Source: a virus
Virus record (IMG/VR): IMGVR_UViG_3300010965_000002
Coordinates: 112,944 to 176,943 of that record
DNA: 64,000 nt
Strand: one strand, 5' to 3'
Position 1 is the first letter of the stretch; every line of letters starts with the position of its first letter. Of the stretch, positions 38,582 through 50,107 are shown piece after piece. Both the position numbers and the translations under genes were made by a program. The notes under the pieces were generated by a model, which was not told the origin of the DNA, did not search any database, and saw only the letters and a list, made by a program, of their open reading frames with translations.

Positions 38582-39078
38582 TGAGCGACGAAGAACTTTC
38601 ACCCGAAGCACATGCACTGTACCAACTGTTTGACTCCCTAGTGACAGACGATTGGGCTGATGTACACTCGTATGCAGCTTACGTTGCACCCATTGCTCGA
38701 TGGCTACCTCCACCGAAGTGGAGAGCGTTGTGGCACGAACTCGGGTCACATCACATGTTGGCCTACAGCGTAAGATCAGGCACTGACTGTGTATCTCGCT
38801 GGCGTGATCGCTATCCGTCCAATCCAAAGGACCACTTGTTAACCCAGACGGTCTTTGTAAATTTGGAAGCACGCTACGCAGAATGGACTACCTTCTGCTG
38901 GGACGCATGGAACGAATTCCTACTGTGGTGCGGTATCCAAACCGAAGCCCTTTGGCAACTGAACAACGCCTTCTTGATTCTCAGTCAGGCAGGCGTATTA
39001 GAAACTCGAAATAGCGGCACCGAAATACGGGTGACGCCAGAAAGCGCAAAATGGAAATTAAACAAGGCGTCTACGTAA
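38581..39078 (+). CDS. hypothetical protein
   Basis: Coupled to both neighbours. Confidence 0.6.
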   Translation: MSDEELSPEAHALYQLFDSLVTDDWADVHSYAAYVAPIARWLPPPKWRALWHELGSHHMLAYSVRSGTDCVSRWRDRYPSNPKDHLLTQTVFVNLEARYAEWTTFCWDAWNEFLLWCGIQTEALWQLNNAFLILSQAGVLETRNSGTEIRVTPESAKWKLNKAST

Positions 39079-40019
39079 TTGGTAACGACGGTAAGAAGAA
39101 CTGGTTGATGCAGGTCTCCAGCGTGAACGATGGCATGGTTTACGGTCACCTAGACTCTAACCGTGCATACGCACCTCAGCAAGGTGAGTTCATGCTTAAA
39201 CAGATCGTTGCCATCTTGGGTGACAAGCCAGCACCTGGTAGTGCTTACGGCTGTACCATTGAACCCTTCTGCCGTACACTGGTGCATCCAGATTGGGGCA
39301 ATGTTCACTGGCACATGCAGATGCCCAAGACCGAAAAGCTGGCGCTGAAAAACGCCTTGGACTCAGTTGCCAAGAAACTCAACCGGGCAAAGCTCTTTGC
39401 CTTCGTAGCAGAAGGCGCTCTTGAACTTGAAGTGCGTCCACCGAAGGGTCGATACACAGGCATGTATCACTACAAGATCAAGAACGGTGAGAACCTTGAC
39501 CGCATGATCTTGCGTCCAAAGATGGGCGTGCCAATGGACTACGTGGTTGCACACGAAAGCGGGCACGGCGTCTGGTATCGTTTGCTGACACCCTCACAAC
39601 ACGCACGTTGGATTCGCCTCTATCACAGCTATACCAAGCTGCAAGAGTTTGAACCCCATCATCTGCGTAAGCTGCGGGATGACTACATTGCCGACAGCGT
39701 ACCTGTGCGTGACTTTCGAGGTCAACTCGAAGAAGCTCAAGTCCTGCTGTTCGACAACCTAATTTCAACTCTGTGCGGCAACACACGATTGACCAATCGC
39801 CACCTTGATGTACTTGCTGAGACAGCCTCACTGGAAACTATCAAGGAAAGCTGGCCGACGCACATTGAAGACAGCGACTTTGAAATCGCAGTCACTGAAT
39901 ACGGCACTAACAACCCCGAAGAATTCTTCGCCGAAGCCTTTGCTTACTGGTTGCTAGGTCAGAAACTGCCTAAACGTGTGCAGGCCGCTATGGACAAAAC
40001 CGTTAAGGCAATAGTGTAA
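39051..40019 (+). CDS. zincin-like metallopeptidase
   Basis: VAHESGH (HExxH) and distal EEFFAEAFA. Confidence 0.7.
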   Translation: MEIKQGVYVIGNDGKKNWLMQVSSVNDGMVYGHLDSNRAYAPQQGEFMLKQIVAILGDKPAPGSAYGCTIEPFCRTLVHPDWGNVHWHMQMPKTEKLALKNALDSVAKKLNRAKLFAFVAEGALELEVRPPKGRYTGMYHYKIKNGENLDRMILRPKMGVPMDYVVAHESGHGVWYRLLTPSQHARWIRLYHSYTKLQEFEPHHLRKLRDDYIADSVPVRDFRGQLEEAQVLLFDNLISTLCGNTRLTNRHLDVLAETASLETIKESWPTHIEDSDFEIAVTEYGTNNPEEFFAEAFAYWLLGQKLPKRVQAAMDKTVKAIV

Positions 40020-40028
40020 ATATGCACT

Positions 40029-40226
40029 ATGGACACACTGACTAACTGGCAACTCTACTCCTTGGTGGCAACACTGATTACGTTAGCCTGTTGCTTATAC
40101 CTTCCAAGCAAACTCAGCGGGTTTAACAATCTCGTTGGTTCCATTCTAGTCGCTGCATTAGGGCCCATCGTTTGGCCCTTCTGCTTGGCGGCTGTTGTTA
40201 AACATTCTCAGAGAAAAACCTCATGA
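40029..40226 (+). CDS. small membrane protein
   Basis: Two hydrophobic segments; GTGTAAATA 6 nt upstream. Confidence 0.55.
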   Translation: MDTLTNWQLYSLVATLITLACCLYLPSKLSGFNNLVGSILVAALGPIVWPFCLAAVVKHSQRKTS

Positions 40227-40912
40227 GCAAAATTCCAAAGCAAGTAGCTGACCTCAAAGGTGCAAACTACAACCCTCGTTACATCACTGCCAAGCAACTG
40301 GCTGCCCTGAAAAAGAGCATCGAAGAATTCGGTGACCTGAGTGGTGTGGTGTTCAACCGTTCAACTGGCGTGCTGGTGTCAGGTCACCAGCGTATCAAGT
40401 CAATCAAAGGCAAGCCCTCAAAGATCGTCAAGACAACGGTGAAGAAAGACCGTCAAGGCACTGTTGCCCTCGGTACGATTGAAATCACCGAAGTCGATAA
40501 GACAATCACACGCATCCCCTATCGTGAAGTCGAGTGGGATGACAAGCTGCAAGAAATGGCTGCTAACGTGGCTGCTAACGCCGCAGGTGGTGAATTCGAT
40601 CAAGCCAAGCTGGGCGCGATCATGGCTAAACTCGAAAAGGGTAAGTTCGACGTTGAACTGACCTCTATTGACAATTGGACAACTGCCAAGGCTATCGGCA
40701 AGTTCAAGAAGTCAAAAGACGAAGATGGCGATGGTGAAGGCAGTGCTGGTGACGAAGAAGAAGGCTTCGCAGTTGTTGACCCTAAAGCAATGGAGTTCCA
40801 ACATACTTGCCCCAAGTGCAGCTATCGTTGGAGCGACAAGGTGGTCAAGACCGTGAAGAAAGTTTCTGCGCCCGCTGCACAACCTGCGAAAAAGAAACCT
40901 AAGAAGGCTTAA
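40223..40912 (+). CDS. ParB/Srx-like protein with C-terminal zinc ribbon
   Basis: NYNPR, LKKSIEEFG, LVSGHQR; CPKC; Lys-rich tail. Confidence 0.75.
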   Translation: MSKIPKQVADLKGANYNPRYITAKQLAALKKSIEEFGDLSGVVFNRSTGVLVSGHQRIKSIKGKPSKIVKTTVKKDRQGTVALGTIEITEVDKTITRIPYREVEWDDKLQEMAANVAANAAGGEFDQAKLGAIMAKLEKGKFDVELTSIDNWTTAKAIGKFKKSKDEDGDGEGSAGDEEEGFAVVDPKAMEFQHTCPKCSYRWSDKVVKTVKKVSAPAAQPAKKKPKKA

Positions 40913-40914
40913 CC

Positions 40915-41487
40915 ATGACAACCATCGTAGGCATTCGCCGTGAACAACATAAAGAAGTGTGGATTGGTAGCGACACGCTGTTGACCAGTCCTGGCCTGCG
41001 TCTTGGCAAAATGAGTAAGACTGCATTGGTTAATGCAGGTACCGAAGATGAAACCTGTATAGCTATTGCCGGCCCTGCCACTGCAATCTTGGCGGTACAG
41101 GACATCTTGTCCACTCACGACTTCGATGACTGGTCAACTACCTTGGCCGTGTATCGAAACATTCTGGCAATACACTGCGTTATGAGGGACCACCACGGTC
41201 TAATCACGCAGGAGCACGAAGACGATACCTTTGAAAGCTCACAGTTTCAATCAATCGTGGCTAACTCCCACGGTATGTGGATGACGCTCAATAGCCGAGA
41301 AGTCATCCCCGTGGTTAACCTGTGTGCAATCGGTTCCGGTAGAGAAATCGCAATCGGCGTTGTTGAAGGTATGGGAATGCTTGACCCAGAAGCCACAATC
41401 AAACGTGCGCTTATGGTTGCAAGCCAGTATGACAAGAGCACAGGCAAAGAGGCAGAAATATGGTCAAACGAAAGAAACCCGCACTGA
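40915..41487 (+). CDS. Ntn hydrolase (proteasome/HslV-like, N-terminal Thr)
   Basis: MTTIVG, GSDT, AIGSGREIAIG, ASQYD..TG. Confidence 0.75.
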   Translation: MTTIVGIRREQHKEVWIGSDTLLTSPGLRLGKMSKTALVNAGTEDETCIAIAGPATAILAVQDILSTHDFDDWSTTLAVYRNILAIHCVMRDHHGLITQEHEDDTFESSQFQSIVANSHGMWMTLNSREVIPVVNLCAIGSGREIAIGVVEGMGMLDPEATIKRALMVASQYDKSTGKEAEIWSNERNPH

Positions 41488-41840
41488 CTTTGCGCAAAGC
41501 AAAGCAGCTTGCACAGCACATGATAGTAAGCGGCCTCCTCACAAGAGCAGTAGCCGCTGAAATCGAACGCCGAGGTCTAGTACCTAACGCACAGTTCAAA
41601 GCAATCGTTGCGGCCAACGACATCGGTAAGAAGCTGCAAGGCATGTTACCTCAGCTTGGTATGCAGTTCAAAGATGGCAATCCAGAGTTTCCCTACACTG
41701 TTTGGCGTGGCGCAAGTGCGCCTTTCATTCTGGCTACACCGACAATCGTTGCAGAGGCTGAGGCGCAAGCCTTGAAACTCAGCGACGAGGTGTACACCAG
41801 TTTGACAACCGTTGCAGTTGCCACTGAGGTAGCACCATGA
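41460..41840 (+). CDS. hypothetical protein
   Basis: Overlaps neighbours in the modification cluster. Confidence 0.55.
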   Translation: MVKRKKPALTLRKAKQLAQHMIVSGLLTRAVAAEIERRGLVPNAQFKAIVAANDIGKKLQGMLPQLGMQFKDGNPEFPYTVWRGASAPFILATPTIVAEAEAQALKLSDEVYTSLTTVAVATEVAP

Positions 41841-42973
41841 TTCTCGCTTCCAAAATGCCTTCAATGGCAGAGATAAACAAGAAAGCCAAGACTGCGAAAT
41901 TCACCGCTGTCAGTTTCTTTTCTGGTATGGGTGGTGGTAGCATAGGCATGAAAATGGCTGGCTACTCTGTTCGCTACGCAAACGAATTCGTCCCTGTAGC
42001 CTCGGACGTTTACGATGCAAATAGCGGAGGCTTGAAGATTGACCGTCGTGATATTCGCAAGGTGACTGCAAAGAGCGTTTATGCTTTGAGCAAGATTCCA
42101 AAAGGCGAAATCGACTTGATCGAAGCCAGCCCTCCATGCAAGGCATTCAGCAGCACGCAAGCACGCAAGCAAGGTCGTGACTTCGGTGAAGAAGTTGATT
42201 ACAGCGAAGGCATCAAACAGCGCGTTGACGATCTGTTCTTTGAATTCTGCCGTGTCCTCAAACACCTGCAAGGTAAAGTCTTCATTGCGGAGAACGTGCC
42301 TGGCTTGGTGAAAGCAATCAACCGTGGATACTTTGTTGAAATCCACGAGGCACTTACCAACTGCGGTTACAACGTACAGGCTGTTGTCATTGACCCGTCG
42401 CGTCTTGGTGTTCCTCAGAAGCGTGAGCGTCTGATCTTCATGGGCATTCGCAATGATCTATACAAAGCCGGATTCCGTCATGCTTGGCCTAAGCCATCAA
42501 AGCATGAAACCACCGTTCAGGAGTGCTTGCCGCACATCGAACGCATTAAGACCACCCGTGGCTACAGTCATGCAAAGTCTCCGAGCCCTACTATTACCGC
42601 ATCAGATCACAGTATTGGAGAGACTGCAAACTTCTCTTGCGGCGGGTTCGTGGAAACCAATGAAGGTGTGTCCCGCAAGTACACCATCGACGAACTGAAA
42701 GTTCTCAGCAGTGTGCCCAAAGACTTTGTGTTCCCACCGCAAGAAAAAGAATCGAAGTCTAAGCACTTCATTCGCAGTTGGGAACGTCTTGGTCGCATTC
42801 ACGTCCCATTGCAGGTGTATCACATTGCGTCTGAAATACGCAAGAACATCTTAGAGCCTTACTACCAAAACAAAGGTAAACCAAATGACAACCAAAGCCC
42901 TCGAAGCGCAAAGAAAGCGCCAGCAGCAACAAAGCCCTCAGCCAGCAAGCCCGCAAGTAAGAAGCCGCGATAA
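41837..42973 (+). CDS. C5 DNA cytosine methyltransferase fold, probable carboxymethyltransferase
   Basis: FSGMGG (I), SPPC (IV), ENV (VI), QKRER (VIII); motif X reads GRIHVP instead of GN(A/S)VP. Confidence 0.85.
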   Translation: MILASKMPSMAEINKKAKTAKFTAVSFFSGMGGGSIGMKMAGYSVRYANEFVPVASDVYDANSGGLKIDRRDIRKVTAKSVYALSKIPKGEIDLIEASPPCKAFSSTQARKQGRDFGEEVDYSEGIKQRVDDLFFEFCRVLKHLQGKVFIAENVPGLVKAINRGYFVEIHEALTNCGYNVQAVVIDPSRLGVPQKRERLIFMGIRNDLYKAGFRHAWPKPSKHETTVQECLPHIERIKTTRGYSHAKSPSPTITASDHSIGETANFSCGGFVETNEGVSRKYTIDELKVLSSVPKDFVFPPQEKESKSKHFIRSWERLGRIHVPLQVYHIASEIRKNILEPYYQNKGKPNDNQSPRSAKKAPAATKPSASKPASKKPR

Positions 42974-43631
42974 GCTCGAAGTCCCTACCGACTGGACTTT
43001 CCACAGCAAGAACGTGGCCGACAACTTTGACATCCATGTGCGGGAGCAGTTGCCTTGGTACGATCTGGCTACAGGCATGGTTGCACACATTGGTCGCCAC
43101 TATCTGCCTGAGAATGGTTTGATGTACGACTTGGGTGCAAGCACTGGCAATATCACTCACGCTCTGGCCTCTGAACTGGACAAGCGTAAAGTCAAGGCAA
43201 TCAGCATTGACAACGCCGAACCCATGAAAGACGTGTGGCGTGGCGTAGGCGACTTTGAAGTGGCCGACATTCGTGAATACGACTACAAGCCTTACGACTT
43301 CTGCGCTTGCTTCCTCGTGTTGATGTTCTTGCCGCCAGTACAGCAGCGTCAGGTGTTTGAAAAGCTCTACAAGAGTTTGAACCCTGGTGGTGCGCTGGTG
43401 ATCTTTGACAAGACTGCCTCGTTCAATGGATACCTTGGAACTGTGATGCACCGCGTTACTCTGGCAGGCAAAGTTGCTACAGGCGTTCCGTCCGAAGCCA
43501 TCGTCAAGAAAGAGTTGTCCTTAGCTGGAGCACAACGTCCGATTGACCCTGATGCTCTCCTGTTCAATCAGTACGGTGTCAAGGAAGTGTTTCGCTTTGG
43601 GGAGTTCGGTGGTTGGGTCGCTACAAAATGA
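42885..43631 (+). CDS. CmoA-like carboxy-SAM synthase / class I methyltransferase
   Basis: DWTF...VADNFDIHVREQLPWY, YDLGASTG, IDNAEPM, LVLMFLPP..R, LNPGGALVIFDK. Confidence 0.75.
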   Translation: MTTKALEAQRKRQQQQSPQPASPQVRSRDKLEVPTDWTFHSKNVADNFDIHVREQLPWYDLATGMVAHIGRHYLPENGLMYDLGASTGNITHALASELDKRKVKAISIDNAEPMKDVWRGVGDFEVADIREYDYKPYDFCACFLVLMFLPPVQQRQVFEKLYKSLNPGGALVIFDKTASFNGYLGTVMHRVTLAGKVATGVPSEAIVKKELSLAGAQRPIDPDALLFNQYGVKEVFRFGEFGGWVATK

Positions 43632-43634
43632 ATG

Positions 43635-43643
43635 CTGTAAATA
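43635..43643 (+). promoter_or_regulatory. CTGTAAATA putative phage promoter
   Basis: 37 nt upstream of 43681 ORF. Confidence 0.65.
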
Positions 43644-43680
43644 ACCTGTAGACGAAATCAACACCGCGAGGTAAACAAAA

Positions 43681-44100
43681 ATGTTCAATCCTTACAGACA
43701 CTTAATGTCTAAGGTAACAGCTCTGCTGCGTACCGAAGCCAAAATGAGTGCAGACGAACGAAGGGCCAATCAATGGCAACTACTCGTCAAGTTTTGTGAC
43801 ACCCAGATTACTGTCGGCAAAGGTGATGTGAACACCATCTTTGTCCAGATGGGTGTAAACGGAAAACGCCGCACTTGTTATCCTGATCAGATACTTGAGA
43901 AGCTCAGTGAACTGGGTAGCCAGAAGCACCATCGCTACGAAGTTGTCAATGCAGAAGGCGAGTCAGACATGTTTTTCAGCCTGGTGACTTTGAAGCAGCA
44001 AGTTACGCCTGAAAAGGGTATGAAGCTGTACGGTCACACTGACAAGCGTGTGCTTCTGCATAAAACACATCAAGCCCTTAACGGCTACGACTGGAAATAA
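43681..44100 (+). CDS. hypothetical protein
   Basis: GAGG RBS; abuts AsnB-like gene. Confidence 0.6.
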   Translation: MFNPYRHLMSKVTALLRTEAKMSADERRANQWQLLVKFCDTQITVGKGDVNTIFVQMGVNGKRRTCYPDQILEKLSELGSQKHHRYEVVNAEGESDMFFSLVTLKQQVTPEKGMKLYGHTDKRVLLHKTHQALNGYDWK

Positions 44101-44101
44101 C

Positions 44102-45019
44102 ATGGGTAAGAAAAACCTAACCAAAGAACAGTTCGCTATGCACACTAAACGTGCTGAACGCCTAGCGAAAGTCATGGTTGACCACGTTGCTGGTTTCAAG
44201 CCCAAGAAGGTTGCAGTGCTGCTTAGTGCAGGCGTTGACAGTCATGCTTGTCTGTTCGCAGCAATGCGGGCAAAGAAACAGATCACCTGTTATTCATTCA
44301 CCCTGGATGATCGCAAGAGCACTGACTTCCGCCTCGCTGAACAAACAGCCGCCGCTTTCGGCTTGCCTTTTGTAGGCGTAAAGCTATCAACTGATCTACC
44401 TGTTCTCAAAGACTACTTGTGGGATGTTTTCAACGTCTACAACACAGGTAGCATCCATGTGAACAAGTCAAGCGTCGAATGCCTATGGCCTTTGTACAAC
44501 GCTTTGAACCGCACTACTGAGGAACACGGTGCGACTATGATCGGCTTCGGCGGTGATGCCTTCTTTTGCACCTTGCGTAGTCAAAAGAAACGTCTGCATG
44601 AGTACGAACTTGTCAAGCAGGAATACTTCAATAACGTTGTCACCAACAAAGGCGACGTGCAAACCCTGATGCTTGAGTCATGGCTTGCCAAACACTCACC
44701 AAGGCATCGTTTGATTATGCCTTTCCATACCAAAGAAGTCTTCGACATCTTCAAGGGTATGGGTCCATTTGACCCTGGCTGCAAGCCTATCCAGAAAGCT
44801 CCAATTCGCTTAGCCTTCTGGGATGAATTCCAGCAGACTGACGTGCGGGTACATCAGAGCTTCCAGAAAGGTGACAGCGGTATCTCTGACCACTTCGCAG
44901 AACTCCTTATTCCTAGCGATTGGAATACACGAGGACTAAAGAGTGTTAAAGGCGTCTACAACGACCTGGAAACTGGTGTTATCCGAAAGCCGGGTCGGTC
45001 ATTGTTTAGGTCTCACTAA
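44102..45019 (+). CDS. asparagine synthase C-terminal-like ATP-dependent amide ligase (no glutaminase domain)
   Basis: VLLSAGVDS PP-loop, YSFT, GFGGDAFF, MPF, K..IR.AF, FQKG. Confidence 0.75.
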   Translation: MGKKNLTKEQFAMHTKRAERLAKVMVDHVAGFKPKKVAVLLSAGVDSHACLFAAMRAKKQITCYSFTLDDRKSTDFRLAEQTAAAFGLPFVGVKLSTDLPVLKDYLWDVFNVYNTGSIHVNKSSVECLWPLYNALNRTTEEHGATMIGFGGDAFFCTLRSQKKRLHEYELVKQEYFNNVVTNKGDVQTLMLESWLAKHSPRHRLIMPFHTKEVFDIFKGMGPFDPGCKPIQKAPIRLAFWDEFQQTDVRVHQSFQKGDSGISDHFAELLIPSDWNTRGLKSVKGVYNDLETGVIRKPGRSLFRSH

Positions 45020-45166
45020 TTTGATATTGTGAAAACGGTTGTGGCACTCCTGCTGTAGGACCTCAAAAAGGACCTAGAGTGGAACCCAAAGTTTGTGGAC
45101 ACTAATTTCATTATGTAGGACCTTGGTACTACATCCTTTTAACGTTCAATCCTCATGAGGCCATAT

Positions 45167-45319
45167 ATGAACAAATCTCACGCTCTCCATGCTTTCGCCA
45201 ACGGCGGCGGCGCTGCTGCTAAGCCTGCCAAAAAGGGCGGCAAAGCTGCTGCTAAAGGCAAGCCTGCTGCTGGCAAGAAGTCTGCTGCCAAGAAGCCAGT
45301 AGCCAAGAAAAAGCGTTAA
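45167..45319 (+). CDS. 50-aa Lys/Ala-rich histone H1-like protein (below ORF-track cutoff)
   Basis: Hand-translated MNKSHALHAFANGGGAAAKPAKKGGKAAAKGKPAAGKKSAAKKPVAKKKR; GAGG RBS; own terminator. Confidence 0.8.
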   Translation: MNKSHALHAFANGGGAAAKPAKKGGKAAAKGKPAAGKKSAAKKPVAKKKR

Positions 45320-45831: not shown

Positions 45832-46228
45832 AGAAGCCTCGCGCTACGTCGTAATCAAGGACGACGCGGTGCCTACGTTCGTCAACAAGCCTGCTGACAA
45901 GAAACTGCACCGAGCGCCTAAGCTCGATGTGACCGTTTTCAGTACGGCAGACAATCATGGAACTCCCAAGACGGGCGCTTCACGTAAGTACCGAGTTCAG
46001 ATCATCAGCCTTAACGCAGACAAGAAGCTGCACGAAGCGCCTGTGTTGGTTCGTTGCACTTGTGACTACTTCACCTTCAATTGCGAAGTGGCACTCACCA
46101 AAAAAGGTGCATCCAAGATCAAACAGAGTAACGGTGACAAGCCTGTGGTGCGTAACCCAAACATGATTCCAACGCCATGCAAACATCTGCATAAGGTTTT
46201 GACCATGATAGTGAAAAGGCGAATGTAA
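45782..46228 (+). CDS. SWIM-type zinc finger protein
   Basis: VRCTCDYF...PCKHL. Confidence 0.7.
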   Translation: MPMTVTQILAASLPAVKEASRYVVIKDDAVPTFVNKPADKKLHRAPKLDVTVFSTADNHGTPKTGASRKYRVQIISLNADKKLHEAPVLVRCTCDYFTFNCEVALTKKGASKIKQSNGDKPVVRNPNMIPTPCKHLHKVLTMIVKRRM

Positions 46229-47214
46229 TGGCGAATGCACTTGACAGTTTGAAGCGCGTCAAGGAGCAGTTAGGGCATAACTACACCAGCTTCCAACTGC
46301 TGAGTGTTCTCGATCAACTCCTCTGGAAAAGTATGTGGCCTATCTTGCGCACTACTGATTACTTTGACCGAGTTCTAGCCAACGTAATAGGCTGGAGTGC
46401 CACTAACCCCAGACGTAAGTTATCGTCTTTACCCAAAGACCGATTCAATACCTATGCTGCGGCATACTTGGTAGCAGACACACCCAAAGTTAAGTTGCGT
46501 ATCCTCAAGAAGATGCGCATTGAGCGTAACATCCTGTTTTACGTGGTTGCACGTTTTCTGGAAGTTATGAAGGACGTTCCGCCAGCAAAGCCTTCACAGA
46601 AAGTAGTCAATGCCCTGGCTGTTTTCGACCATGAAGGTCTATGGTTTGCCGCACGCGAAAGCGACTATTGGCATCAGCAAGCCATAGCCTTCAAAGGCAT
46701 GATTATGGAAAAGTACATGCGCTTTGTCATGATGGAGGCGCAGCAATTCCATAAGCAGCAGAGGCAGCACAATCCACACTTGAATTTTGACCTCGATGAC
46801 ATCGCTCAGAATTTCATTCTGGCGGTTAACAAGGCGATTGACAAGTGTGATGCGCAGCAAGGAACACTGACAAGCTATATTCAGAATTGGATTAAAGACG
46901 CTAAAGGTAACCCACAGCTTCGCGGTGAGTATGGAATAGCTTACACCATACCTGCATCGCAACGTCGTGCGGTGGCTCAGAGCCCTAAAAACAAAGCTGT
47001 AAATATCAGTGTCAGCATCGACAGCGACGAACTCCAACATTTACGAAGCGAAAGCAACGTTGAGGAAGAGTTTGAACGGAAGCGAACCGTTGAGCTTGTA
47101 CGCCTGCTGGCAAAACGTGCCGACCCAACCGGCATAAGCCGAATGTTCTTAGGTATCGGAGAGATACTTGAGCCTCAAGAACTAAAGCAATTAGAAACCC
47201 AACTTCCTAACTAG
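46228..47214 (+). CDS. phage RNA polymerase sigma factor (sigma70-like region 2)
   Basis: DDIAQNFILAVNKAIDKCDAQQGTLTSYIQNWIK matches DLIQEGxxGLxKAVxKFDxxxGxxFSTYAxWWIR. Confidence 0.75.
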   Translation: MANALDSLKRVKEQLGHNYTSFQLLSVLDQLLWKSMWPILRTTDYFDRVLANVIGWSATNPRRKLSSLPKDRFNTYAAAYLVADTPKVKLRILKKMRIERNILFYVVARFLEVMKDVPPAKPSQKVVNALAVFDHEGLWFAARESDYWHQQAIAFKGMIMEKYMRFVMMEAQQFHKQQRQHNPHLNFDLDDIAQNFILAVNKAIDKCDAQQGTLTSYIQNWIKDAKGNPQLRGEYGIAYTIPASQRRAVAQSPKNKAVNISVSIDSDELQHLRSESNVEEEFERKRTVELVRLLAKRADPTGISRMFLGIGEILEPQELKQLETQLPN

Positions 47215-47222
47215 GAGAAAAC

Positions 47223-48671
47223 GTGAAAGCTCAATTTAAGAACTCTACTGGATTCGAGGCTGCAAAGCCCAGCGTCGGTGGCCGTCGTGAAACCGTCAAG
47301 ATTTCCGACCTCGTGGAAATGCTCGAATGGCCGAAGAAAGGCAAAGGCGTAACCGTTCGTTTGGTTGGCCCTATTGCTGGCCGTGGTATCCACAAGATCA
47401 AGGTGCGTAAGAAAGATGGCAACGAAGTCGAGATTCAGAAGCCTTGCTTGGCATACAACCCCAAGACTGATGACAAAGACAGTACGGTGAAATGCCCGTA
47501 TTGCAAGATGCCTGCTGAACTGGCTAAGTTCTCCAAGCTGTACTTCGGCAACGCCATTGTGCGCGAACTGCAGGAAGACAAGCCGGGCAAGCTCAAGCGC
47601 CCAACCAAGGGTGAAACCGAAACGGGTTTCAAAGAAATGGACAGCGACACCTGGACTCCAGTGCGCGTTGTTCGCATCCCATCCAGCCTGATGCTGCGTA
47701 TCAAGCAGTTGGGCGAGAAGAACATTGTCAAGTCGAAGACTGGTGACAAAAAGCACTTCTTCCCGATGCACGAAAAGTTCGGCTTCGACCTGGACATCAC
47801 GTTCGACAAGACGTTGCCTGCCGCCAGCATGTACTCTGCTGACCGCACTGAATCGCCTGATGGTGAAAAGTATTCGGTGTTGACCGAAGACGAAGGCAAC
47901 TACTTGCTGTGGGACACCGATCAAGTCTATCCTGCGGAAGAATTTGAAGAAGCCAAGAAAGAAGCCAAGTCGCTGCAAGACCGTTGGGGCGGCGGCGACA
48001 AGGATGAAGACGACGAAGACGAAGATGACGACGAGCCTAAGAGCCGTAAGAAGCCTTTGTCAAAAGCAAAGCACGTTGACGACGACGAAGACGACATGGA
48101 CCTCGATGACGAGGATGATGAAGACGACGCTCCGAAGAAGTCTTCCAAGAAACCAGCGGCCAAGGGCAAGAAACCTGCTGATGACGAAGATGACGAAGAT
48201 GATCTTGACCTCGACGATGATGACGAGGACGACGAGCCACCTAAGAAGTCTTCCAAGAAACCGGCTGCCAAAGGCAAGAAGCCCGTAGCATCTGATGACG
48301 ATGACGACGAAGATGAAGACGATGACGAGGATGAAGAAGACGACGAGGACGACGAGCCTCCGAAGAAATCTTCAAAGAAGCCTGCCGCCAAAGGCAAGAA
48401 GCCAGCCGCCGATGACGAGGATGATGAAGACCTCGATGACCTCGATGAAGACGATGAGGACGATGAAGAAGACGAGGACGATGAACCGCCCAAGAAGTCT
48501 TCCAAGAAGCCGGTAGCTAAGAAGCCTGACGCTAAAGGCAAGAAGCCTGCTGACGACGAAGACGACAGCGACGACCTCGACGATGAAGACGAAGAGGAAG
48601 AAGCTCCGCCCAAGCGCACGGCCAAAAAGCCAGCGGCAAAGTCTGTTTCCGTCAAGCGTAAAAGCCGTTAA
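47223..48671 (+). CDS. gp32-like single-stranded DNA-binding protein with long charged tail
   Basis: Globular N-terminal ~250 aa with two Cys pairs, upstream of RecA; ~225-aa D/E and K block tail; AGGAG RBS. Confidence 0.65.
   Translation: MKAQFKNSTGFEAAKPSVGGRRETVKISDLVEMLEWPKKGKGVTVRLVGPIAGRGIHKIKVRKKDGNEVEIQKPCLAYNPKTDDKDSTVKCPYCKMPAELAKFSKLYFGNAIVRELQEDKPGKLKRPTKGETETGFKEMDSDTWTPVRVVRIPSSLMLRIKQLGEKNIVKSKTGDKKHFFPMHEKFGFDLDITFDKTLPAASMYSADRTESPDGEKYSVLTEDEGNYLLWDTDQVYPAEEFEEAKKEAKSLQDRWGGGDKDEDDEDEDDDEPKSRKKPLSKAKHVDDDEDDMDLDDEDDEDDAPKKSSKKPAAKGKKPADDEDDEDDLDLDDDDEDDEPPKKSSKKPAAKGKKPVASDDDDDEDEDDDEDEEDDEDDEPPKKSSKKPAAKGKKPAADDEDDEDLDDLDEDDEDDEEDEDDEPPKKSSKKPVAKKPDAKGKKPADDEDDSDDLDDEDEEEEAPPKRTAKKPAAKSVSVKRKSR
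47990..48668 (+). repeat. coding repeats: poly-D/E blocks alternating with PKKSSKKPAAKGKKP units
   Basis: Four near-identical basic units plus two degenerate ones. Confidence 0.9.
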
Positions 48672-48679
48672 CTAAAGGG

Positions 48680-48703
48680 ACGAGGTGGCGCAAGTCACCT
48701 CGT
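48680..48703 (+). promoter_or_regulatory. GCAA-tetraloop hairpin between SD and recA start
   Basis: ACGAGGTGGC-GCAA-GTCACCTCGT, AAGGG immediately 5', ATG 6 nt 3'. Confidence 0.55.
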
Positions 48704-48709
48704 AATCAA

Positions 48710-50107
48710 ATGGTAACTAGAAAGAAACCGACCGCAGCAGCAGCGAAGAAAGCCTTTGCTCCTGACTATGGTGGCTTACTTGACCAAGTTGAACGCAAGT
48801 ACAGCTTAGGCCAAGGCGCAATGAGCTTGGAAGCACGACTGTCTAGCCAAGTTAGTACCGGCCTGCTCGGTTCTGACTTGATGCTCGGTGGTGGCATTCT
48901 TGCAGGCCGTTGGTACACCTTCTTTGGTGGCGAAGGTAGCGCAAAGTCTACGCACATTGCTCACATCAAGTTGTCAGCGGCTGATTCCGGCGTCCCAGTG
49001 TTGAGCGACTTCGACTACGAAGGCAGTAGCGATCCTACTTACTATGAAGGCATCATGGAGTTCTACTCCAAGCTGAAAGGCGTTGATGAACTTTATGGTG
49101 TTCAAGACGACAAGGGCAAGTGGATTGTTCCACGCCGTGTTCGCTACAACGAGGTGACAACTGCGGAAGACTTCTTCAACAGTGCCTCAGCATTCTTGCG
49201 TCGCATCCCCAACAAAGAGTACCTCGAAAACAAGTGGTGGTATTCGTGGGAAGATGACAAAGCGGGCAAAGCCGCCGCTGGCACTCAGTACAGCAAGGTC
49301 ATGAAGCAGCGTTACGGCCGCCTGATGATCGAAGCAGAGAACGGTTTGCCTCAAGCAATGTTCTTTCTGGACAGCTACCCTGCTATGTATCCAGAAAAGC
49401 TGGACGAGGATGACAAAGGCGTTGGTATGGCCGCTGTTGCCCGTGCAATGGCAGAGAACATCCCCAAGATTTTCAGTAAGCTGCGCCGTAGTTCAGTCAC
49501 CATCATCGGTGTGAACCAATTGCGCCTGCGACCTGCGGTGATGTTTGCCAATCCAGAATACGAGCCAGGTGGTGAAGCTCTCAAGTTTGCATCCTCTGTG
49601 CGTGTTCGTCAAGCTGCACGTAGCGTTCCGCACGGCAAAGGACCTGTTGAAGAAGAACAGAGTGCCCTGTTTGAAGATGCAACCGACAGCTACCGTTACA
49701 TCCACATGAAGGCAATCAAGAACAAGACTTCAACACCTTATCTTGAAAGCTGGCAACGTATCTGGATTAACGACGGTACAGGTACCGCTCACGGCTTCGA
49801 CCCTGTGTGGGATACATTCCAGTATCTCAAGAACACTGGTCAGCTTGAAGCAGGCTCCACCATGAAGAAGCTCAAGATTCCCATGCTTGGAATCAAGAAG
49901 CCGATCACCTGGTTGGACTTCAAATCGTTGGTCACATGCAAAGGCAAAAACCTTCAAGCCACTTGCAAGTCGCTCGGTATCACAAAGCCTCCAAAGCTGC
50001 GTGAACGCTGCGCAGCACAAGTTGCCAAGGGCGACGGCACAACCATGTTCTTCAACAACCTCCGCTCCGAAGCCGAGGAAACTGAGGAAGACGGTGACGA
50101 CGAGTGA
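48710..50107 (+). CDS. RecA/UvsX-like recombinase
   Basis: STGLLGSDLMLGGG, GGEGSAKST Walker A, FFLDS, VNQLR, EPGGEALKFASSVR, KNK. Confidence 0.9.
   Translation: MVTRKKPTAAAAKKAFAPDYGGLLDQVERKYSLGQGAMSLEARLSSQVSTGLLGSDLMLGGGILAGRWYTFFGGEGSAKSTHIAHIKLSAADSGVPVLSDFDYEGSSDPTYYEGIMEFYSKLKGVDELYGVQDDKGKWIVPRRVRYNEVTTAEDFFNSASAFLRRIPNKEYLENKWWYSWEDDKAGKAAAGTQYSKVMKQRYGRLMIEAENGLPQAMFFLDSYPAMYPEKLDEDDKGVGMAAVARAMAENIPKIFSKLRRSSVTIIGVNQLRLRPAVMFANPEYEPGGEALKFASSVRVRQAARSVPHGKGPVEEEQSALFEDATDSYRYIHMKAIKNKTSTPYLESWQRIWINDGTGTAHGFDPVWDTFQYLKNTGQLEAGSTMKKLKIPMLGIKKPITWLDFKSLVTCKGKNLQATCKSLGITKPPKLRERCAAQVAKGDGTTMFFNNLRSEAEETEEDGDDE

Follow-up and report, generated by a model that had tools for sequence, protein, structure and literature searches.

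The seven plus-strand ORFs at positions 40,223 to 45,019 of the window, i.e., the whole 64,000-nt stretch of the viral record IMGVR_UViG_3300010965_000002 that was analysed, very probably constitute a jumbo-phage version of the published CmoA/CmoX/CmoY system of post-replicative DNA hypermodification, with a ParB-like protein and a 139-aa protein as conserved accessories and with a BPH-type proteasome homologue and the product of ORF 41460 as a lineage-specific insertion. All seven ORFs, which are designated here by their first position, were found where the original prediction had placed them, and profile or structure matches, with E-values far beyond chance, upheld each of its family calls (Table 1). 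CmoA, CmoX, and CmoY of Synechococcus phage S-B43 have been characterised; CmoY amidates 5cxmC with glycine, and the resulting glycine amide, 5gcxmC, is present in the virion DNA (Yang et al., Nat Commun 2025, PMC12783734). That a stand-alone AsnB-like ligase encoded beside an MTase/CmoA pair amidates 5cxmC in an ATP-dependent reaction, as had been predicted from the present locus, has thus been shown for S-B43 CmoY, of which 44102 is a homologue. The accompanying suggestion that this chemistry could be undescribed was forestalled by the publication of the two-step pathway, carboxymethylation followed by amide ligation, in December 2025 (Yang et al., 2025).

Based on homology to the characterised enzymes of phage S-B43 (SpCmoA, SpCmoX, and SpCmoY), we propose that modification may proceed in three steps. 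The CmoA homologue 42885 would convert SAM and prephenate into carboxy-SAM (Cx-SAM). The next step would fall to the CmoX homologue 41837, which, by means of Cys101 and of Arg320 as the carboxylate-binding residue, would place the carboxymethyl group on cytosine C5 in double-stranded DNA. Finally, the PP-loop of the CmoY homologue 44102 may adenylate the carboxylate of 5cxmC and couple it to an amine, yielding an amide. By analogy, the amine would most likely be glycine or another small amino acid or amine, and the host pool is its likeliest source because the record encodes no glutaminase. A role in DNA loading or substrate presentation is proposed for both accessory proteins, the ParB-like 40223 and the 139-aa 43681, and the Thr protease 40915 and 41460 would represent a two-gene insertion at the ParB–CmoX junction that is dispensable for the chemistry. 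Neighbouring genes of the run lie close together: some overlap, by 4, 28, 4, and 89 nt, and the others are separated by 1–49 nt.

Table 1. Predicted genes of the modification cluster and its flank (positions in the window)
Coordinates	Strand	Predicted product	Length (aa)	Supporting match or context
39051..40019	+	Zn-metallopeptidase-like, flanking the cluster	322	phrog_17197 'peptidase' 6e-60
40223..40912	+	ParB-like protein, conserved accessory	229	phrog_620 1e-30
40915..41487	+	BPH-type proteasome homologue, Thr-Ntn peptidase	190	BPH structures, phrog_1040
41460..41840	+	Clade-restricted, mostly helical protein	126	No family match
41837..42973	+	CmoX, DNA cytosine C5-carboxymethyltransferase homologue	378	PF00145 1e-45
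42885..43631	+	CmoA-like carboxy-SAM synthase homologue	248	TIGR00740 top family
43681..44100	+	CmoY partner, phrog_23597 (function unknown)	139	Conserved beside CmoY
44102..45019	+	CmoY-like PP-loop ATP-dependent amide ligase without glutaminase domain	305	PF00733, PF06508, phrog_26038

The closest solved relative of 41837 was SpCmoX (8yf3, 5e-41), and its identity to the orthologues of Pseudomonas phage PaBG and of lineages L010 and L018 was 46–53%. The protein has a C5-MTase fold with the catalytic SPPC motif at residues 98–101 (Cys101), ENV at residue 152, and a basic tail rich in Lys, Pro, and Ala. In SpCmoX, the Arg at position R350 (motif X; Asn in HhaI) binds the carboxylate of Cx-SAM (Yang et al., 2025). 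The ERLGRI motif of 41837 aligned with ERVGRM of 8yf3, and Arg320 thereby occupied the R350 position, which was placed as the Arg of GRM through the R350N primer. Judging from its sequence, 41837 is thus predicted to be a Cx-SAM-using dsDNA carboxymethyltransferase.

The co-conservation envisaged for all seven ORFs held for five of them, namely those encoding the ParB-like protein, CmoX, CmoA, the 43681 family, and CmoY, but not for 40915 and 41460, which were absent from every related CmoX/CmoY locus, and every whole record, that was examined. The five genes occurred together in at least five jumbo-phage lineages (L010, L011-16, PaBG [L001 = L017], L018, and L020), in varying order but with the ParB–CmoX and 43681–CmoY adjacencies conserved. 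In phages Y3 and Yoloswag, the ParB-like gene lies beside cmoX, and the genes for CmoA, CmoY, and the 43681 homologue form a second block. Bioinformatic analysis has tied CmoX to CmoA and AMP-forming ligases, with ParBc-domain proteins as frequent neighbours, and has revealed ligase clusters with unknown amines (Yang et al., 2025).

The ParB-like protein 40223 matched phrog_498 (1e-23) and five further ParB-like/nuclease PHROGs in addition to phrog_620. Pfam ParBc (PF02195) gave no match to it even at E ≤ 1, and its family profile gave none in the PDB. It has a CxxC near the C-terminus, a Lys-rich tail, and an SGHQR motif (GxxR-type) that was invariant in the family alignment. Its identity to the CmoX-adjoining orthologues of PaBG, L010, L011-16, L018, and L020 was 41–51% (44% to PaBG_00176, annotated as a ParB-like nuclease), and orthologues also adjoin cmoX in Y3 and Yoloswag.

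Homologues of the 139-aa protein 43681, a type of protein absent from the description of Yang et al. (2025), were detected in 51 phage records. The family lies no more than 2 kb from cmoY in every locus examined: its gene directly precedes or follows cmoY in PaBG, L010, L011-16, L018, and L020 and is 1.9 kb away in Y3. The AF2 model (pLDDT 93.6) has two domains; Foldseek returned no match to it in the PDB, and its sole match in BFVD was the PaBG orthologue. Residues 1–81 gave a VIA Z score of 6.4 to YkuJ and Pur-alpha, a value under the reliability mark, and W32, G46, K47, N51, T52, F54, P68, and W138 were invariant in the family. The protein may possibly bind nucleic acids. A bolder reading of the locus, which we consider unlikely, is that five components make up the jumbo-phage system, with the 43681 family and the divergent CmoY attaching an amine other than glycine and so producing an undescribed cytosine base, and that in the present phage the DNA adduct or DNA-trapped enzyme is also a target of the BPH-type protease and the 126-aa protein encoded next to it. 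If true, this would be the first link between any proteasome-family enzyme and DNA modification.

ORF 40915 starts with MTT and matched the HslV family phrog_1040 at 3e-12. Its single sequence matched Pfam PF00227 only at E 0.086, and its profile matched BPH structures alone (5ovu, 2.8e-22; 5ovs, 4e-13). The residues T2, D20, K35, G53, and GSG140–142, invariant in the alignment, correspond to Thr-1, Asp-17, Lys-37, Gly-50, and Ser-139 of Td-BPH, so that all the active-site residues accompany the similarity. No homologue was found in 50,697 phage records or the IMG/VR collection. Close relatives for which only metagenomic sequence is known retain the gene, down to 43% identity. For 41460, four relatives at 36–75% identity were aligned from among 1.84 billion representatives, indicating a real but very narrowly distributed gene; its AF2 model (pLDDT 84.7) gave no structural match. 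Judged by equal contig sizes only, which are a proxy for context, 41460 homologues apparently share contigs of 1829, 14954, and 5416 bp with BPH homologues, and the most distant of them apparently shares contigs of 33720, 15671, and 5027 bp with CmoY homologues. The flanking ORF 39051 has a weak gluzincin motif of the ATLF/Zmp1 type at its C-terminus and is 31% identical to the endopeptidase PaBG_00182; homologues lie within approximately 4 kb of the cluster in four of the five lineages (L010, L011-16, L017, and L018, not L020).

Because their frames overlap or nearly abut within the same packed run, 40915, 41460, and the modification genes are probably expressed together, so that a functional link is conceivable. 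The protease, with 41460 and perhaps the Zn-metallopeptidase, might clear CmoX that is covalently trapped on DNA, degrade the modification enzymes, or trim an amino acid or peptide that CmoY has added. The C5-methyltransferase-type mechanism of SpCmoX, which passes through a covalent Cys–C6 intermediate with DNA (Yang et al., 2025), would offer a target for the first of these roles, and the position of both genes between those for the ParB-like protein and CmoX, the recurrence of the Zn-peptidase near the cluster, and the apparent contigs shared by the most distant 41460 homologue and CmoY point in the same direction. However, both genes are missing from all other lineages with the full five-gene core, and the ParB–CmoX junction, a 12-nt gap in PaBG, holds approximately 1.9 kb of unrelated small ORFs in L010, as expected of a permissive insertion site. 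Moreover, the shared contigs are only a proxy for common context. Such a role is thus improbable, and we favour an insertion dispensable for the chemistry.

The ligase 44102 matched PF00733 (Asn_synthase, 2e-7), the QueC PP-loop family PF06508, TIGR01536 (4e-5), and phrog_26038 (1.5e-54). Its 305 residues comprise the PP-loop domain, with SAGVDS at residues 42–47, and no second domain. The ATG at 44102 is favoured over the GTG at 44048, as the homologues start with MGK or MGR. Its identity to SpCmoY, which tblastn matched at 3e-11 in the phage collection, is 29% across 83% of the length, and the alignment shows motifs common to both; its identity to the ligases of PaBG, Yoloswag, Y3, and Sen-NF is 33–36%. 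This homology, the AsnB-type PP-loop without a glutaminase, and the neighbouring CmoA and CmoX together mark it as a CmoY-like ligase. Because the identity to SpCmoY is only 29%, its amine is not readable from sequence.

The original prediction named the Ntn hydrolase 40915 as a possible source of ammonia or amine. As a separate amidohydrolase subunit serving 44102, it would complete a split amidotransferase that yields 5-carbamoylmethylcytosine or a related amide. The ligase has no glutaminase of its own, and class I/II glutamine amidotransferase domains (PF00117 and PF13537) were not found elsewhere in the 177-kb record, by a search that was positive for 14 of 14 control genomes. In addition, 40915 is part of this run of genes, three genes upstream, and a second ligase cluster in the literature bears a fused class II glutaminase domain; ammonia-using variants thus probably exist. 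However, 40915 has Thr instead of Cys as its nucleophile, gave no GATase match, and retains every active-site residue of a BPH/HslV-type peptidase, its profile matching BPH structures only; it falls outside the Cys-Ntn class II glutaminases. To our knowledge, no member of the proteasome family acts as a glutaminase, which also counts against 40915 as the amine donor. Furthermore, it is missing from the 50,697 phage records and from each other locus or record with a homologous ligase, and SpCmoY is active without such a partner (Yang et al., 2025). The donor role is thus very unlikely, and supply of the amine from the host pool remains the preferred reading.

The CmoA-like ORF 42885 overlaps the tail of cmoX, and no alternative in-frame start was found for it. 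TIGR00740 scored 4.7e-22 (78.8 bits) against 1e-5 for the next unrelated family, and the best PDB matches were the CmoA structures 4gek and 1im8. Tyr39 and Lys198 were invariant in the CmoA alignment. Among the phage CmoAs, this protein diverges most, being 21–25% identical to the majority of the others, and it falls under the TIGR00740 equivalog cutoff (193.3 bits). The validated SpCmoA (115.6 bits) and the proteins of PaBG, Y3, and L010 also score too low for this cutoff, which is thus uninformative for phage CmoAs. Arg199 of E. coli CmoA, which contacts the carboxylate of Cx-SAM, is replaced by Glu in 42885, and the same Glu is found in the biochemically active SpCmoA. Arg199 is therefore not required in the phage enzymes, and its absence is no ground for excluding them. 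That 42885 makes no carboxy-SAM, so that the MTase transfers another group and the base is not a 5cxmC derivative, would accord with this Glu, the low score, and the divergence, but is hardly credible given that SpCmoA shares the first two features, that no other family comes close to CmoA, which also gives the best PDB match, that the partner MTase retains the carboxylate-binding Arg, and that a carboxylate-activating ligase is encoded alongside.

Taken together, the locus mainly extends the published pathway to a PaBG-like jumbo phage known solely from a metagenome. The conserved accessory genes beyond those of Yang et al. (2025) provide a clear, testable list, with the 139-aa ligase companion as the most notable entry. 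Since PaBG and the Erwinia phages are cultivable, the role of this protein and the identity of the final base are directly testable. Separately, 40915 is a phage-encoded proteasome homologue of the BPH type, a family not listed in phages before: a 2021 survey of proteasome homologues recorded PPH, AAH, and CPH in phages, BPH not among them.

Among known systems, BPH (Fuchs et al., 2018, PMC5777263; 5OVU/5OVS) shares with 40915 the active-site Thr1, Asp, Lys, Gly, and Ser and a Met-Thr start without a propeptide; 40915 differs in being phage-encoded, and no connection between cellular BPH and DNA modification is known. AsnB has the PP-loop ATP-pyrophosphatase domain in common with 44102, for which an acyl-adenylate mechanism may be assumed, but 44102 lacks the N-terminal Cys-Ntn glutaminase domain of AsnB, and the similarity is weak, on a par with that to QueC and NAD synthetase. 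Furthermore, AsnB acts on free aspartate, whereas the substrate of 44102, by analogy with SpCmoY, would be a DNA base.

PaBG genes 176–180 and the blocks of Erwinia, Dickeya, and Yersinia jumbo phages contain the same five-gene core, with protein identities of 21–46%, and PaBG also has a Zn-peptidase nearby; its genome paper did not connect these genes to DNA modification. In PaBG, the ParB-like gene abuts cmoX and an extra 203-aa gene follows the ligase, whereas in the Erwinia phages and Sen-NF the ligase is followed by a 2OG-Fe(II) oxygenase; the record of the window has neither of these genes and differs from PaBG-type blocks in the insertion of the BPH gene and 41460. Compared to S-B43, the window has these two extra genes, and neither the ParB-like gene nor the 43681 homologue is present at the S-B43 locus examined. 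The proteins are only 31% (CmoX), 23% (CmoA), and 29% (CmoY) identical, and the GC target motif and the glycine amine of S-B43 may or may not be shared by the present system. Common to both phages are three adjacent enzymes: a homologue of Cx-SAM synthase, a C5-MTase homologue in which SPPC and the Arg that binds the carboxylate are present, and an AsnB-like PP-loop ligase that lacks a glutaminase.

The IMG/VR viral record that ends with the 64-kb window comprises 176,943 bp and is 72% complete according to CheckV. From 39.0 to 45.0 kb, genes follow one another in an unbroken run on the + strand with tiny gaps or overlaps, and the ORFs are named here by their start coordinates. Profile searches confirmed each family call made for the cluster genes in the original prediction, the observation of which was thus correct. 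Searching 35.5-46.5 kb for promoters and terminators gave fewer sites than shuffled controls did, and no operon boundaries were therefore drawn from it.

Genes of the cluster and its upstream flank, in window coordinates
Feature	Coordinates	Strand	Remark
Zn-metallopeptidase-like gene	39051-40019	+	phrog_17197; weak ATLF/Zmp1-type gluzincin motif
65-aa ORF		+	between Zn-peptidase-like and ParB-like genes
ParB-like gene	40223-40912	+	
Thr-Ntn gene	40915-41487	+	
126-aa ORF	41460-41840	+	
C5-MTase homologue (CmoX)	41837-42973	+	
CmoA-like gene	42885-43631	+	
139-aa ORF	43681-44100	+	
PP-loop AsnB-like gene	44102-45019	+	

The locus belongs to the already known CmoA/CmoX/CmoY system. Work on Synechococcus phage S-B43 assigned carboxy-SAM synthesis to CmoA and the formation of 5-carboxymethylcytosine at GC sites to CmoX, a C5-MTase homologue; CmoY, a glutaminase-less AsnB homologue, ligates glycine in an ATP-driven reaction to give 5gcxmC, which was detected in S-B43 virion DNA (Yang et al., Nat Commun 2025; PMC12783734). 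The proposal that carboxymethylated cytosine is amidated by the AsnB-like ligase is borne out by the biochemistry of S-B43 CmoY, though this had been published earlier (PMC12783734). The survey in the same paper counted 5,615 CmoX, 4,257 CmoA, 2,251 ligases and 1,660 ParBc proteins, and it already recorded a link with ParB as well as ligase clusters whose amine is unknown.

The best solved relative of the window's CmoX (41837) was the S-B43 enzyme SpCmoX (8yf3, 5e-41); SPPC is present, with Cys101, and ERLGRI aligned to ERVGRM of SpCmoX, in which the R350N primer identifies the Arg as R350. The ligase (44102) carries the PP-loop SAGVDS, shows 29% identity to SpCmoY across 83% of the ligase length, and has the K..EC, G..D, KPxQK and H..Q.G motifs in common with it. 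The CmoA-like protein (42885) is divergent, scoring 78.8 bits against TIGR00740 (cutoff 193.3), and has Glu at the position of Arg199 in Escherichia coli CmoA. However, the biochemically active SpCmoA has the same Glu and, at 115.6 bits, also falls under the cutoff, so neither feature argues against Cx-SAM synthesis; a different cofactor, which the Glu might have implied, was rejected because SpCmoA has Glu too. By homology to characterised enzymes, the pathway would consist of Cx-SAM synthesis, then C5 carboxymethylation, and then adenylation with amide formation, and it is likely that all three steps take place.

The CmoA start lies 89 nt inside CmoX (42885-42973) in another frame, and no alternative in-frame start is present, so the basic tail of CmoX and the N-terminal extension of CmoA (approximately 22 aa) are encoded by the same DNA. 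Lys/Pro/Ala-rich basic tails end both CmoX (42858-42973) and the ParB-like protein (40838-40912), and a 54-aa ORF 3' of the ligase (45155-45319) consists almost wholly of such tail sequence. Among the ParB orthologues, several carry long tails rich in Lys (alignment A7). Unlike the window's CmoX, its orthologues in PaBG and locus L010 have no basic tail.

The IMG/VR search for CmoY gave no match with a single sequence and matches when it was alignment-based; with alignment A3 of ligase homologues, 11 IMG/VR loci were fetched. Every window ORF was compared with these loci and with Pseudomonas phage PaBG, Erwinia phages Y3 and Yoloswag, Salmonella phage Sen-NF, and S-B43. A five-gene core of the ParB-like protein, CmoX, CmoA, the 43681 homologue and CmoY was found together in at least five jumbo-phage lineages (L010, L011-16, PaBG = L017, L018 and L020). 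Co-conservation had been predicted for seven ORFs and held in the compared loci for these five, but not for 40915 and 41460; neither of the latter was found in those loci or in 50,697 phage records, and a search of five related records in full, including a 100% complete one, likewise yielded no Thr-Ntn gene. Gene order varies by lineage, with the ParB-CmoX and 43681-CmoY adjacencies kept. ParB adjoins CmoX in Y3 and Yoloswag as well, and the junction tolerates insertions, as the two genes are 12 nt apart in PaBG and separated by approximately 1.9 kb of unrelated small ORFs in L010. The ParB-like family profile had no match among PDB sequences.

The 43681 homologue adjoins CmoY on either side, with a gap of 1.9 kb in Y3, and the family was found in 51 phage records; no homologue was found in the compared S-B43 or Sen-NF loci or in the Staphylococcus phage record carrying a ligase homologue. 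ORF 43681 has a confidently predicted fold of two domains (pLDDT 93.6), for which Foldseek found no match in PDB; among viral models, only the PaBG orthologue matched. In VIA, residues 1-81 resembled YkuJ/Pur-alpha with a Z of 6.4 (rmsd 3.6-3.7, 73-80 aligned), which is under the reliability mark. From this weak PUR/Whirly-like resemblance of the model and the invariant residues of the family (W32, GKG46-48, NT51-52, PD68-69 and W138), our best guess, at low confidence, is that 43681 may be a nucleic-acid-binding helper of the ligase. The main interest of the locus, which is moderate, lies in this undescribed conserved CmoY partner and in the amine of the ligase.

The Ntn hydrolase (40915) had been suggested to release ammonia for the ligase, but this was not borne out. 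Among solved structures, the 40915-family profile matched only the bacterial proteasome homologue BPH (5ovu, 2.8e-22), and the equivalents of Td-BPH Thr-1, Asp-17, Lys-37, Gly-50 and Ser-139 are invariant in the family, including seven metagenomic homologues (43-94% identity), all of which start with MTT. Judged from its sequence, 40915 is a proteasome-type peptidase and not a Cys-Ntn glutaminase; since, in addition, no class I or II glutamine amidotransferase domain was found in the whole 176,943-bp record, the ammonia-donor idea is without support. The BPH gene had no match in the IMG/VR scan, and its profile found no close cellular relative among GTDB genome contigs; in metagenomes, the one match was a distant bacterial BPH (28%), which adjoins MoeA and Lnt and is irrelevant to the phage context. 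In a published survey, the proteasome homologues recorded for phages belong to other families and do not include BPH; the phage BPH is thus a small novelty. The N-terminal nucleophile of 40915 is Thr. Cellular BPH outside Betaproteobacteria has a Ser nucleophile (Fuchs et al. 2018, PMC5777263), and the Thr could point to a source or host among Betaproteobacteria.

ORF 41460 has four relatives among 1.84 billion representatives and no match in the IMG/VR scan. With contigs matched by size, which is only a proxy, three of the four are on contigs with BPH homologues and the most distant is on contigs with CmoY homologues. The protein is predicted to be mostly helical (pLDDT 84.7), and fold searches gave no reliable match; the ESM Atlas held no usable match for either 41460 or 43681.

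Downstream of the cluster, 46228-50107 contains a gene for a sigma-70-like protein (27% identity to the RpoD-like one of Sen-NF), one for an SSB-like protein, and a 465-aa ORF placed where Sen-NF has a RecA-annotated gene; the modification cluster thus lies within a replication/recombination module. Homologues of the Zn-peptidase occur a few kb from the cluster in four of five related jumbo-phage lineages (PaBG_00182, L010, L011-16 and L018), and this gene could conceivably be linked to the covalent chemistry of CmoX on DNA.

In the Erwinia phages Y3 and Yoloswag (at 25.7-32.5 kb of their records), an open frame of 705-742 aa contains the CmoX homologue and, after approximately residue 100, a large insertion; the ParB-like gene is directly upstream with a single TAA between, and approximately 12-17 kb upstream, a block of its own is made up of CmoA, the ligase, a 2OG oxygenase and the 43681 homologue. 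In Salmonella phage Sen-NF (PV359490.1, 6887-8410), the gene after a CmoY-like ligase (36% identical) encodes a 2OG-Fe(II) oxygenase; the 108-kb genome as a whole yielded neither a CmoX nor a ParB-like homologue, and this ligase-oxygenase pair may therefore act on a different carboxylate. The 2OG-Fe(II) oxygenase that follows the ligase in the Erwinia phages and Sen-NF has no equivalent in the window's record, nor has the additional 203-aa gene of PaBG; in the phage of the window, the amide is probably the end of the pathway.
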